Origin: Dictyostelium discoideum | Lineage: Eukaryota | DNA: 64,000 nucleotides | Assembly: GCA_000004695.1 (NCBI GenBank) | Contig: CM000154.2 | Span: 1 to 64,000 of the forward strand | Direction of reading: 5' to 3' | In this document: in pieces, positions 39,157 through 43,808 of the stretch | Layout: each line of letters opens with the position of its first letter | Numbering within the stretch: the first letter of the stretch is position 1 | Translations under genes and position numbers: made by a program | The notes under the pieces: model-generated | Told to the model about the DNA's origin: nothing | What the model saw: only the letters and a program-made list of their open reading frames with translations | The model's database searches: none

Positions 39157-40193
39157 TATCTCTTTAAACAAAAAAAAAAATAAAATAAATAAAAAAATAA
39201 AAAAAAAATGAAGTTCAGGTGAAAATCTAAAACAAAAATATCTTTTTATTTTAATAAAAAAAATATTCGGAAATAAAAAACTTTTAAAATAAATAGAGAC
39301 ATTTTGACTTTTATTTTATTTTATTTGATTTTATTTTAATTTAATTTTTTTTTTTTTTTTTTTTTTTTTTTGAATTATTGTTATTTGAAACTCCCTTTGA
39401 TTCTGATTTGTCTATTTTTTTTTTCAAGAGTCTTTTAAATTTTTAATTCTTATAAAAAAATTGTAATTTAAATGTCAAATGGGCACAATCGGGACATTGA
39501 GTTTAATACCTGTTCAGACTCGAGAGGTATCGTTCATTTCACTCTGCACCATCATCAATTAAGAAAGATTGTAAAATAAACTCTAATGGTGGAAAAATTA
39601 TGAGAAGAAACAGCTTTAAAAAAACATCTGCGGTCTCAAAAACCCAACAAGTCAGTAGTGACTATAAATTTGCATTAAAAATTAAATCTTTTTCTTAAAT
39701 TTCTCTTTAAAATAATATTAAATTATTAAATAATTATGTAATGAATATAAAAAATTTTCTTTTAGAAAATTTTTTTAACTATTTTTTGAATTGGATAACA
39801 CAATTATTATTTGCTTCTCCTTGAGATGCTAAATCTCATTTTATTTGTAGTATTTTTTACAGGGTTTCTAAAAGAGGTGTTAGTTTATTTTTTTTTTTTT
39901 TTTTTTTTTTTTTTTCGAATTTTTAATTGTATTATTACTTTTGATTAAAACATCTTTTTTGTCCAAACTTTTTTTTAAATCTTTTTTTATTTTGGAGTCG
40001 GCTTCGTGATTGATGTTGATGACATATTTGAATTGTTTTTTTTTATTTGAGTTCTGTCTACAATTTCGCTTATTTTTTGTAGGTATTTGTATTGGTGGTG
40101 TTATTGGTTATTTTCATCTTATTTTCTTTCTATTTTTTTTATTTTACTTTAAAAAGTTACAAATCTTGAAATTTTTTGATTAACTTGGGTTCC

Positions 40194-40197
<4 letters not shown>

Positions 40198-40242
<45 letters not shown>

Positions 40243-40840
40243 TATTATTTATAGAGAGTACTATCACTACTAGTTTTAGCGAGATTAAGGAGTCTAGCGA
40301 CAGTATGACGGGTCTTGAACTACCCAACCCCTCATAGTATCGGTGAAACCTTAAGTCACTTTCTTGACTGACATTCGCTCTCATCTCTCGCGCCACTCAC
40401 TCGCCATTCGTTTTTATATATTTTTACTTTTATCGACTTACTATGTGTGAGCGCGAAGGCCCAGAGGCATAAGCCTCCTTCCCGTTACTTGAAGTGTCTC
40501 GCCAGTGTGCCACACGTTTACTGTTGCAGTGACTGAATAACCAACGGCTTCGCTTAAGCCTTATCGAGGTGTCCTGTTGACCGTTTGTGCCGTCGAATGG
40601 TTTTGCAAACTACCTCCCCAGATTCGATGATAGTATTGTAATCACTCATTTCGGAGTTTTTAGTTGCTATGCTTATTGGTCTGGTTATACATGTCCGAGG
40701 AGATTTTTTTGCTTTAAACCATCAATATAAGCAGTTTTTATTACTTCCTACTATTGACCTAGGTCTTATATGTTTTTATGAGCCAACAGGTTATCTTACC
40801 GTTGTACCCTTGGGACATAAGTCTATCTCTTGTCTGCTAT
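40198..40840 (-). mobile_element. Non-autonomous TRE5-like (tRNA-gene-targeted non-LTR retroelement) relic: GC-richer ORF-less segment with a 50-nt poly(A) tail on the minus strand and its 5' end about 48 bp upstream of tRNA-Lys.
   Basis: Composition about 45% GC against flanks under 20%. Poly-T at 40198-40247 on plus. The element ends at about 40838 and the tRNA starts at 40886, the characteristic TRE5 spacing. No ORF. The family rests on position and geometry only. Confidence 0.4.
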
Positions 40841-40885
40841 TATTTTTAATTTAAGCTTGTATTAAAATTAAATTTACCAAAAAAT

Positions 40886-40958
40886 GCCCAGATAGCTCAG
40901 TCGGTAGAGCGCAAGGCTTTTAACCTTGTGGTCGGGGGTTCGAGCCCCCCTTTGGGCG
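40886..40958 (+). tRNA. tRNA-Lys (anticodon UUU), 73 nt.
   Basis: GCCCAGA/TTTGGGC acceptor stem, D-arm GCTCAGTCGGTAGAGC, anticodon arm CAAGG-CTTTTAA-CCTTG, T-arm GGGGG-TTCGAGC-CCCCC, discriminator G. A- and B-boxes are internal. Confidence 0.95.
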
Positions 40959-40988
40959 AAATTTTCTAAATGTACCCATTAGATCATA

Positions 40989-40999
40989 GGTTCGAATCC
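40989..40999 (+). promoter_or_regulatory. External B-box (exB) GGTTCGAATCC, 31 bp downstream of the tRNA.
   Basis: Perfect B-box consensus without a tRNA body, a known feature of Dictyostelium tRNA gene flanks. Confidence 0.5.
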
Positions 41000-41099
41000 T
41001 AATTAAATGGAAATTCATTACCTAATATTTCTGAAAAACTTGCACCACTAATAAAATACTCTTATTGAAATGATAAAGAATTACCTATTTTTTAATTTT

Positions 41100-41336
41100 G
41101 TAATTGATTCTGTATTTGTTGAGTTTTATATGCGAGTTGTTACCATTTCGTGTATTTTTAAAATACTCTCTCAAAAGACCCAAACAACTTCAAAGATCCA
41201 AACGTTTTCCTCAATCAAATTATTAATTTAAGAAACTTAACATGCAAAGTCTATTGCATTCCGAAATCAGTACTCCCAAACCTAGTCTCTTTCGACCAAT
41301 TTATTTAAATAATTCTCAAAAAAAAAAAAAAAAAAT
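41100..41336 (+). mobile_element. Possible 5'-truncated TRE3-like retroelement 3' fragment ending in an A19 tail, 140-380 bp downstream of the tRNA.
   Basis: An approximately 230-bp ORF-less segment of normal complexity, terminated by poly(A) at 41318-41336 on plus. The position is typical for TRE3 insertions. Confidence 0.25.
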
Positions 41337-41564
41337 TTCTAAATAAAACTATTAATTATTGTTTATTCCCTTTAAAGGATAAACTTTAATTAATCAATAT
41401 AAAAAAAAAAAAAAAAAAAAATTTTAAAATCTAATAATATTTGATGGTAATATTGATTTTTATCTTCGTTTTTTACGAAATTTTTTATTAAACATATCTG
41501 TTTCAAATTTATATTATTAAATAAATAACATGTTGGTCATTCTTTATGTGTCAACTAGATACTT

Positions 41565-41687
41565 CACTTTTTTATTTTTTAACGTGGCAGTTATGAAATT
41601 TTTATTTAATTCAAAAATAAAAAATATCAAAAAAGATATTTTTTTTAAAAGTTTCAAATAACTGCCACGTTAAAAAATAAAAAAGTG
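41565..41687. repeat. Perfect inverted repeat with a 30-bp stem (cacttttttattttttaacgtggcagttat) and a 63-nt AT loop.
   Basis: Arms 41565-41594 and 41658-41687 are exact reverse complements. The loop is itself partly palindromic (gaaattttt...aaaagtttc). Confidence 0.85.
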
Positions 41688-41772
41688 ACATAAAACATGA
41701 TTGTAATTATAAATAATAAATTAATTAAAAAAAAAAAATTAGTATCAAAATAAAATAAAATAAATATATATA

Positions 41773-42591
41773 ATGGTACTAAAAACAATAGAATATGATT
41801 ATTTGTGTAAAAGTAAATACATTTTAATACTTAAATTGATTTTTTTATGTTATTATTATCACTATTAATAAAATATATTTAAAAATAAAGTTGTTGTTAT
41901 TGGAGATTCAGGAGTAGGAAAATCAAATCTATTATCAAGATATAATAAAAATGAATTTAGTGTCGGAAAATTATCAACAATAGGTGTTGAATTCTCAACC
42001 AAAACATTAAAAATTGATAATAAATTAATAAAACTTCAACTTTGGGATACTGCAGGTCAAGAAAAATATAATTCTATAACGGAATCATATTATAAAGGAG
42101 CTATTGGGGCTTTAATTGTTTATAATATTGCTGATAGAAATTCATTTAATAACCTTGAAAAATGGTTAAAAAAATTTAGAGAAAATGGTAAATAATTTTA
42201 TAAAATAAAATTATGAATTATTATCATAAATATTAATATTAATATTTAATCAAAATTATAAAAAGCACATCAAGATTATGGAATAATGTTGGTAGGTAAT
42301 AAAAGTGATTTAAAAGAATATCGTGAAGTTTCAACATTAGAAGGTAAACAATTTGCTGAAAAACATTATATGCAATTTATTGAAACATCTGCATTAGATT
42401 CAAATAATGTTGAAACTGCATTTAATAATTTATTTAATTTTATTTATTATAGTTTATTTAAAAATAAAACTATGACTTTGGATATTAATAATAATGGTAA
42501 TAATAACAGCAATATAATGGTTGGTGATTGTGAACCAATTCAATTTGATCAACGATATACAATTAATAAACCAGTATATGATTGTTGTTAA
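41773..42591 (+). CDS. Rab-family small GTPase (Rab11-like, divergent) with a C-terminal CC prenylation site: join(41773..41811, 41891..42187, 42266..42591).
   Basis: Exon 1 [13 protein letters not shown], then GTAAAT intron (79 nt, phase 1), giving ...[27 protein letters not shown], then G|GTAAAT intron (78 nt, phase 1), then [24 protein letters not shown], ...DCC*. ORF 42286..42591 is exon 3. Confidence 0.85.
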
Positions 42592-42647
42592 AAAAAAAAA
42601 AAATTTTAATAGAATGGTATTCTATTTTTATTTTATTTATTTGTATT

Positions 42648-43808
42648 TTATTTACTTTGTTTTATTTCTAGATCAGTGTCATTAATTATTGTGTCAAATA
42701 TACCTACTATATCGATATATAATTCCAATTTTTTATTTTTATTAAGTCTAATTAAGGAGTAGAATAAATGACCATTCCAAATTCTTAATAAATAGTTTAC
42801 CTTTGAATCTAATGATTCTAAACCAAAATCTTTAATAGAAATTGAAAAATTACACATACCAATTTTTTCAAACATTGTTGGCCGAAATCAAACCCAAAAG
42901 TATTTTTTAATAATTCTGTTGGGACTGGGATTTGAATAACTTTGAAAATAAATTTTCTTAAATCATTTTTAGTATAAAATTTACCTAATAATCCCAACCA
43001 TTTACAGTTATTTGGTTTATCTTTTTCTAAAATTTCGATTAGTTCACCATACCCTTGTTTTAATAAATCACCTCTTTCTTTAAAAAAGTTATCTATTATA
43101 ACCCCAATGTAATATGTATTGCCTCCAAATCCATCATCAGGTATAATCCTCCAATTTGAAAAAAATGTAGTTTTATCTTTTTCAAGGCTTAATGATGACA
43201 TACCATAATCAATTATATACAATTGCTTTGTTTTTATATCTATCATCATATTTTCACTATGCAGATCACCATGTTGAATAAACACCAAATTTTTTATCCA
43301 ATTGTATTTAAATAATTGTTTAATAATATTTTTTTTCTCCTCATCAAATGATGGATCTGTTTTTCTTGATTCATCTCTGTAATATTCGCTAACAAATTCA
43401 CCCTCTATTTTTTGAATTAGCAATAACATTCTATTAATATCTTTATGACAATCAACTTCGAATACAATTCCATATATTTTTGGTGTACATTCATCAACAC
43501 TGTGCATAATATAATGATATAATAATTCTTTTGTTACACAATCAATATATTCTTGACCAAAAGCTCCTAATAATTCTTTTGCAACATAATTGTTTTTCTA
43601 TTTTATCCCCATAATAGATAACATTATAAACAACACCAAATTGGCCACTTCCAATAACATTGTCACCTGCACCTTTATAAGGTATCGTTCCACAAAAATC
43701 ATTAATGTAGAAATCATTTAAAAACTCTTTGGGAATTGAAAAATGGAGTTTTTTCGAATAATCTTTAAGTTTATTATTGAAAGAGTCTTGGAATTCTTTT
43801 ATTTTCAT
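42648..43808 (-). CDS. Atypical protein-kinase-like / APH-choline-kinase-like protein (GSGQFGVVY...YVAKE...HGDLHSENMMID...IIDYG), broken by one or two 1-nt frameshifts in homopolymer runs.
   Basis: ORFs 43542..43808, 42818..43507 and 42648..42875 are consecutive frames of one gene. The shift between ...YYGDKIE and NNYVAKELL lies in an A5/T5 run at about 43593-43597. A second possible shift lies in an A6 run at about 42865. Confidence 0.5.

Follow-up and report, generated by a model that had tools for sequence, protein, structure and literature searches.

A perfect hairpin in the rab11B promoter of AX4-type Dictyostelium discoideum, probably a recent local inverted duplication by template switch

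The rab11B promoter of the AX4-type haplotype of Dictyostelium discoideum contains a perfect inverted repeat with arms of 31 nt, of which the left arm is absent from three related haplotypes. The new arm is derived, and it is a reverse-complement copy of sequence that lies close by in the same promoter. We consider it highly probable that the hairpin is a recent, lineage-specific local inverted duplication; the pattern of the sequence points to a replication template switch as the most likely mechanism. What appeared to be a hairpin element or mini-transposon can thus be described as a dated, polarised mutation that leaves its ancestral state, its donor and its product open to inspection.

The inverted repeat upstream of rab11B

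The window, by which we mean the whole 64-kb stretch of DNA that was analysed, has a G+C content of ~22% and is of the AX4 type of D. discoideum. Orthologous loci, located by protein look-ups, were taken from four other assemblies: L003 (GCA_054883475.1), L001 (D. discoideum, GCA_054859385.1), L004 (D. discoideum, GCA_054859355.1) and L002 (D. cf. discoideum, GCA_054859205.1). A repeat search of the window identified a perfect inverted repeat at 41564-41594 and 41658-41688, with arms of 31 nt each that are 100% complementary and have 63 nt between them. An earlier note on this DNA had described exact arms of 30 bp (41565-41594 and 41658-41687) around a 63-nt loop; the exactness and the loop were borne out, whereas the arms proved to be longer by one base per side. 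The right arm ends 85 bp before the ATG (41773) of a gene whose spliced product, of 220 aa, is identical to D. discoideum AX4 Rab11B (Q54KM9). The note had put the repeat ~90 bp upstream of a Rab11-like gene, within its promoter region; this was correct, and the gene is rab11B. Because a TATA-like box sits downstream of the hairpin, the hairpin is probably located upstream of the rab11B transcription start and would thus not be part of the rab11B mRNA. The features of this region are listed below.

40885-40959, + strand: tRNA-Lys(UUU) gene, ~600 bp upstream, with an external B-box-like sequence, GGTTCGAATCC, at ~40990-41000
41564-41594, no strand assigned: left arm, TCACTTTTTTATTTTTTAACGTGGCAGTTAT; derived; all that L001, L004 and L002 share of it is the initial TC[A], 2-3 bases of the conserved flank TACTTC(A)
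41595-41657, no strand assigned: spacer of 63 nt, of which 41595-41607 is the inner end of the inserted copy and 41608-41657 is ancestral and collinear with the other strains
41619-41644, no strand assigned: inner small hairpin of the spacer, AAAAAATATC / 6-nt loop / GATATTTTTT; pre-existing, and conserved in L001, L004 and L002
41658-41688, no strand assigned: right arm, ATAACTGCCACGTTAAAAAATAAAAAAGTGA; ancestral promoter sequence, with orthologues in L001 (ATAATCGCCACGTTAAAAAATCAAAAAAGTGA), L004 and L002
41708-41715, + strand: TATA-like motif, TATAAATA, read directly from the sequence, between the hairpin and the ATG, which it precedes by 58 bp
41773-42594, + strand: rab11B, with exons 41773-41812, 41891-42187 and 42266-42591 and the stop codon directly after the last of them

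The 31-mer was found at only two sites in the window, namely the two arms, even with up to 3 mismatches allowed, and none of 100 shuffles gave any match. A scan of the window indicated that this is its longest perfect inverted repeat, the N run at 1-100 (100 N, an assembly gap) and pairs of A/T homopolymers aside, and it is the sole long inverted repeat in the window with G/C (8 G/C per arm). To estimate the length expected by chance, 100 order-3 Markov simulations of the window were scored for perfect inverted repeats that had 4 G/C or more and a loop no longer than 300 nt. The simulated maximum was 18 nt, compared to the 31 nt observed, and the claim that the repeat exceeds chance was thus upheld.

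Folding predictions likewise supported the hairpin that had been proposed. The 151-nt region that holds the 125-nt hairpin was predicted to form a strong stem-loop as RNA of the + strand (-54.5 kcal/mol, z = -11.6), and predicted folds of similar strength were obtained for RNA of the - strand (-52.9 kcal/mol, z = -10.2) and for DNA (-41.9 kcal/mol, z = -11.6). In the predicted structure, the 31 perfect pairs give way to a 2-nt bulge, beyond which the stem is extended imperfectly by 10 pairs (41595-41604 with 41646-41655); these are followed by an asymmetric internal loop and by the inner hairpin, itself predicted to have 10 bp (41619-41628 / 41635-41644) and a 6-nt loop.

Hairpin-free alleles and the proposed template switch

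The window, L003, L001, L004 and L002 were aligned with MAFFT from the tRNA gene to rab11B exon 2. L001, L004 and L002 were each found to have the left flank in conserved form (..CAACTAGATACTTC), the spacer including the small hairpin, and a recognisable right arm; the orthologue of the right arm reads TATAATCGCCACGTTAAAAAATCAAAAAAGTGA in L001 and GATAACGTCCAAGTTAAAAAATAAAAAAAAGTAAT in L002. At the site of the left arm, the alignment had a 42-column gap in these three haplotypes. Three differences between the window and the other alleles could be delimited.

41533-41551, no strand assigned: inverted segment of 19 nt, TTGGTCATTCTTTATGTGT in the window versus ACACATAAAGAAAAACCACCAA in L001/L004, 13 bp upstream of the left arm
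41566-41607, + strand: lineage-specific insertion of 42 nt, ACTTTTTTATTTTTTAACGTGGCAGTTATGAAATTTTTATTT, which would be the 2->3 fragment of the template-switch model
41657-41658, no strand assigned: junction of a 14-nt deletion; AAATAAAAATTTGT lies left of the right arm in L001, L004 and L002 and is missing from the window

The reverse complement of the insert aligned end to end with a 44-nt ancestral segment, AAATAAAAATTTGTATAAT(C/T)GCCACGTTAAAAAATCAAAAAAGT, which comprises exactly the 14 nt missing from the window (AAATAAAAATTTGT) plus the right arm. This donor match lies 51 nt downstream of the insertion point, at 5867-5910 in L001, 5865-5908 in L004 and 6278-6317 in L002, and its alignment scores of 32-34 compare with a best background score of 19 in 13-kb chunks. 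When all indels of 12-120 nt between the window and L001 were considered over 12.8 kb, the 42-nt insert was the sole one with a local reverse-complement source.

The deletion junction at 41657/41658 coincides exactly with the inner end of the right arm, and AAATAAAAATTTGT survives in the window in inverted form only, within the left copy (41595-41607). Where the two parts of the copied segment (C and D below) meet, the inserted copy is slightly unlike the ancestral form (TTTC-ATAAC versus TTTGTATAAC). Two G>C changes are specific to the window, AATTG>AATTC (41608-41612) and GTTTG>GTTTC (41651-41655). These transversions, at 41612 and 41655, occupy the centres of TTGAA motifs that form a direct repeat flanking the spacer, and the one at 41655 makes a G-C pair that lengthens the stem; the paired changes could be a second templated correction. 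A combined inversion and duplication that would have inverted the spacer was ruled out, since the spacer aligns in direct orientation, apart from the two G>C changes, and AAAAAA, its central loop, has kept its orientation. The segment at 41533-41551 scored 11 against L001/L004 when reverse-complemented and -18 in the forward direction; this stretch is absent from L002, which leaves the direction of change unpolarised.

The polarity of the insertion was established from the neighbouring glycine-dehydrogenase gene, whose DNA is 99.0% identical between the window and L001/L004, 98.1% between the window and L002, and 98.2% between L001 and L002. Identity of this coding DNA places L002 outside the other three and makes it the outgroup. 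Because the outgroup has no left arm, one gain is more parsimonious than two identical, precise losses. These results indicated that, in a comparison with three hairpin-free haplotypes (L001, L004 and L002), the left arm is derived in the window lineage, i.e. was gained. The predicted fold of the ancestral-type sequence was not significant (-9.3 kcal/mol, z = -0.95), and an unstructured ancestor means that the hairpin arose de novo.

We propose the following sequence of steps. The ancestral order would have been A-B-C-D-E, in which A is the flank ending TACTTC, B is the 50-nt spacer with the small hairpin, C is AAATAAAAATTTGT, D is ATAAC..AAAAAAGT and E is GAC..., and the order in the window would correspond to A-rc(CD)-B-D-E. 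A replicating strand would briefly have copied the opposite or the nascent strand backwards and then returned, an event of the four-point model's type '1-4-3-2', with the result that a 42-nt reverse-complement copy of C+D was placed between A and B and no bases were lost where it went in. The outermost 2-3 pairs of the arms, TC[A] with [T]GA, stem from complementarity that the flank already had with the bases next to D on its right, and this would be a plausible microhomology for the first switch. C would then, or simultaneously, have been lost from the original copy, leaving perfect arms of 31 nt and a spacer of 63 nt. An intermediate allele, A-rc(CD)-B-C-D-E, was found in none of the alleles compared, and the order of insertion and loss given here is provisional. 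One switch is insufficient, because the 14-nt loss, the two G>C changes and the difference at the C/D junction lie beyond it and call either for a further event or for a single one of greater complexity. The product could equally be that of break repair with fold-back priming. The adjoining 19-nt inversion, unpolarised as it is, has the form of a type 1-3-2-4 outcome of the four-point model. In yeast, tRNA genes are known replication pause sites, and it is a matter of speculation that fork stalling at the tRNA gene would have favoured template switching here.

The closest known counterparts are the template-switch mutations described with the four-point model by Loytynoja & Goldman 2017 (PMC5453318) and by Monttinen et al. 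2022/2023 (PMC8794818, PMC10710096). In those studies, as in the rab11B promoter, the new segment is the reverse complement of sequence tens of bases away, and the rab11B case shares with them a perfect hairpin formed de novo from an unstructured ancestor, polarity given by an outgroup and an adjoining in-place inversion. Type 1-4-3-2 events, which create an inverted repeat, make up 31% of the high-confidence human-chimp events and type 1-3-2-4 events 45% (PMC5453318), and template switches make perfect hairpins in one step even without a prior repeat (PMC10710096). The 2->3 fragment in rab11B, at 42 nt, is well over the 14-nt reliability threshold (PMC5453318) and is longer than the short events stressed in published work. 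The rab11B case also differs in that a 14-nt deletion and two base changes fall outside a single switch. Published examples come mainly from catalogues of primates, yeast and bacteria, whereas this one is amoebozoan. A related process is quasi-palindrome correction (Ripley 1982), in which, as outlined in PMC5453318, replication strand switching perfects a pre-existing near-perfect inverted repeat. On that outline, the small prior hairpin in the spacer and the 2-3 nt of complementarity at the outer junction resemble such a correction, but the correction needs a prior near-perfect repeat and the rab11B ancestor was without any left arm (z = -0.95).

The process is a known mutational one, and no new type of biological system is involved. 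The hairpin cleanly illustrates how a templated replication error, as we read it, makes a perfect 31-bp stem from unstructured DNA. Together with the adjoining micro-inversion, the event suggests that template switching also shapes amoebozoan promoters, in this case in the extremely AT-rich Dictyostelium genome. The comparison further flags a structural difference in the rab11B promoter, in which the AX4-type haplotype, represented by two assemblies, is set apart from the remaining D. discoideum isolates compared here.

Function and other readings of the hairpin

Nothing indicates a function for the hairpin, which we regard as a probable selectively neutral by-product of the duplication. A present function is unlikely; it would take the form of a transcribed hairpin that gives rise to small RNAs (a nascent miRNA or hpRNA) or of a palindromic or cruciform site that changes rab11B expression. 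Slightly less likely again is a newborn functional element of the AX4-type laboratory lineage, in which transcription started by a T tract would yield a hairpin diced by DrnB, or in which the promoter insert would change rab11B expression relative to wild isolates. These possibilities draw on the very stable hairpin predicted for both strands and on the finding that template-switch hairpins landing in transcribed DNA are a documented source of new miRNA genes (PMC10710096). In addition, the duplication sets a T tract (CTTTTTTATTTTTT) in + orientation, and D. discoideum miRNAs are mostly intergenic, with T tracts preceding their start sites (PMC6161686). The hairpin resembles D. discoideum miRNA precursors (Avesson 2012; Meier 2016; Liao 2018; Edelbroek 2024) in being an intergenic AU-rich stem-loop of ~125 nt whose energy is likewise far under -0.2 kcal/mol/nt. 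It differs from them in its perfect 31-bp stem, a feature closer to an siRNA source than to a miRNA precursor, and in being confined to one lineage.

Several results weighed against a function. The palindrome is not conserved, the left arm being absent from all three other haplotypes, and the hairpin, which probably lies upstream of the TATA-like box, would fall outside the rab11B mRNA. TAACTG, which we take to be a Myb-type core, occurs in each arm, but it is not conserved in the right-arm orthologues, which have TAATCG, TAATTG and TAACGT. A conserved palindromic cis-regulatory site was ruled out on the same grounds, i.e. the absence of the left arm in three haplotypes and the variable core of the right arm. 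A spacer of 63 nt makes cruciform extrusion unlikely.

Sequence searches for known products of the stem were also negative within their scope. The 9-mers of the stem core had no match in the supplements of Liao 2018 and Edelbroek 2024 (PMC6161686, PMC11014262), the two most complete D. discoideum miRNA surveys. The absence of the stem sequence from these supplements argues weakly against DrnB-dependent products of ~21 nt. A full-text literature search with the stem 14-mers, as DNA and as RNA, matched no paper. At gathering thresholds, Rfam returned only the tRNA from the whole window, and a search of the 600-bp region at E<=10 returned noise only (MIR2646, 14 bits versus a gathering score of 245). 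Template switching could also provide raw material for lineage-specific dictyostelid miRNAs, and if the small-RNA reading were true, the locus would be a de novo hpRNA or miRNA locus caught at birth in an amoebozoan.

Long palindromes are deletion-prone, and just three hairpin-free haplotypes were sampled, which together would allow the hairpin to be ancestral and the left arm to have been lost independently in the other lineages through palindrome instability. This is very unlikely. It demands that an identical 42-nt deletion occurred independently at least twice, in the L002 outgroup and again in the lineage of L001/L004, and it can hardly explain why the 14-nt segment C is direct in those alleles and present only in inverted form in the window. 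Arms of such age should also differ by now, yet they are identical. The strains are several percent divergent in the non-coding DNA nearby, and perfectly identical arms amid such divergence point to a young age for the event.

The first of the readings suggested in the earlier note was a MITE or foldback-type element (thug-like), here a 125-bp unit inserted upstream of rab11B; its others were a cruciform-forming regulatory element and the stem of a transcribed hairpin RNA, and a local inverted duplication was not among them. The long perfect terminal inverted repeats, the small size and the transposon-rich interval beside a tRNA gene fit a transposon. MITEs and foldback elements, Thug among them, share with the hairpin the long terminal inverted repeats, a short internal region and strong hairpin potential, but such elements insert as a unit, whereas in the hairpin-free alleles both spacer and right arm are in place at the orthologous site and just 42 nt are absent. 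The missing 42 nt, moreover, are a reverse-complement copy of adjacent sequence. No target-site duplication was found, as the flanks ..GATACT / CATAAA.. (..CTAGATACT and CATAAAACAT..) have no direct repeat, and no further copy was present in the 64-kb window (up to 3 mismatches allowed) or in 12 dictyostelid loci, ~193 kb in all. Thug-S is a multi-copy, intron-containing DNA transposon (PMC4894637) that yields known miRNAs, while the rab11B repeat is single-copy in the DNA examined. Given a single new arm, the lack of a target-site duplication and the absence of further copies from the sequence searched, the transposon reading was refuted, and we regard it as extremely improbable.

The chance that the repeat is an artefact introduced when the reference sequence was cloned or assembled, for which the assembly gap in the window (N run 1-100) and the difficulty of cloning AT-rich palindromes might be cited, is practically negligible, because the same 125 bp are found in the independent chromosome-level assembly L003 and contigs from two separate read sets break precisely at the right arm. 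Over 12.8 kb, L003 matches the window at 99.81% identity (4 mismatches, 6 gaps), and its hairpin is identical; a locus this similar that nonetheless differs elsewhere is an independent assembly of a near-identical strain. The Logan contigs L005 and L006 (read sets SRR26869257 and SRR26869267) have the first base of the right arm as their first base. Logan assemblies use k=31, and a k=31 de Bruijn graph would be expected to break in this way at a 31-nt perfect inverted repeat. The hairpin thus explains the breaks of short-read graph assemblies at the rab11B promoter. More generally, any perfect inverted repeat that reaches 31 nt breaks up a k=31 graph assembly, and contig ends could be used to reveal such repeats.

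The rearranged neighbourhood of the hairpin

The AX4-type haplotype is rearranged all round the tRNA-Lys gene compared to the other isolates. A block of ~920 bp at 39884-40844 is found in the window and L003 only and is absent from L001, L004 and L002; it is G+C-rich at 40240-40850, has a 39-nt poly(T) tract at 40200-40238 and ends ~40 bp upstream of tRNA-Lys. Downstream of the tRNA gene, ~430 bp at 41008-41445 are absent from L001/L004, and 41141-41445 is absent from L002 too. The first ~100 bp of 41008-41445 are therefore common to the window and L002, which indicates that L001/L004 also carry a deletion there. The segment 41141-41445 consists of two pieces that end in A18 (41319-41336) and A22 (41400-41421), ~180 bp downstream of the tRNA. 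TRE5 integrates ~50 bp upstream and TRE3 ~100 bp downstream of tRNA genes (PMC5633606). The position and the minus-strand poly(A) end of the ~920-bp block would fit a fragment of a TRE5-type, tRNA-targeted retroelement, and the pieces in 41141-41445 may be 3' remnants of TRE3 type. Both blocks are called TRE-like by position and poly(A) ends only, as their 19-22-mers had no literature match and no further copies were found in the fetched loci.

The genes next to the hairpin also vary between isolates. Rab11B protein is only 96% identical among D. discoideum isolates, compared to 99% for the neighbouring glycine-dehydrogenase DNA, and in D. cf. discoideum (L002 6300-7060) exon 1 of rab11B is missing and the reading frame contains a TGA. 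No rab11B was found in the interval from glycine dehydrogenase to the ComC-like gene in D. firmibasis, D. citrinum, D. dimigraforme or a second D. cf. discoideum (L009-L012), and the rab11B promoter was also missing from the syntenic site in all of them. By these comparisons, rab11B appears to be a young, unstable gene. A minus-strand gene at 42818-43808, which separates rab11B from glycine dehydrogenase, has ~650 bp less in the window/L003 than in L001/L004, with a called product of 363 aa versus 577 aa; the difference is a large indel in the coding region (window ~42837-42845 versus L001 7055-7715). A separate palindrome was observed in L012 (D. cf. discoideum, GCA_054859235.1), ~250 bp downstream of glycine dehydrogenase. 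It is a perfect palindrome of 58 bp without a spacer at L012 10456-10513 (TTTTTAAGAGTAATCTAAATTAGATAAAA / reverse complement), occurs in none of the other 11 loci, and may likewise have arisen de novo by inverted duplication.
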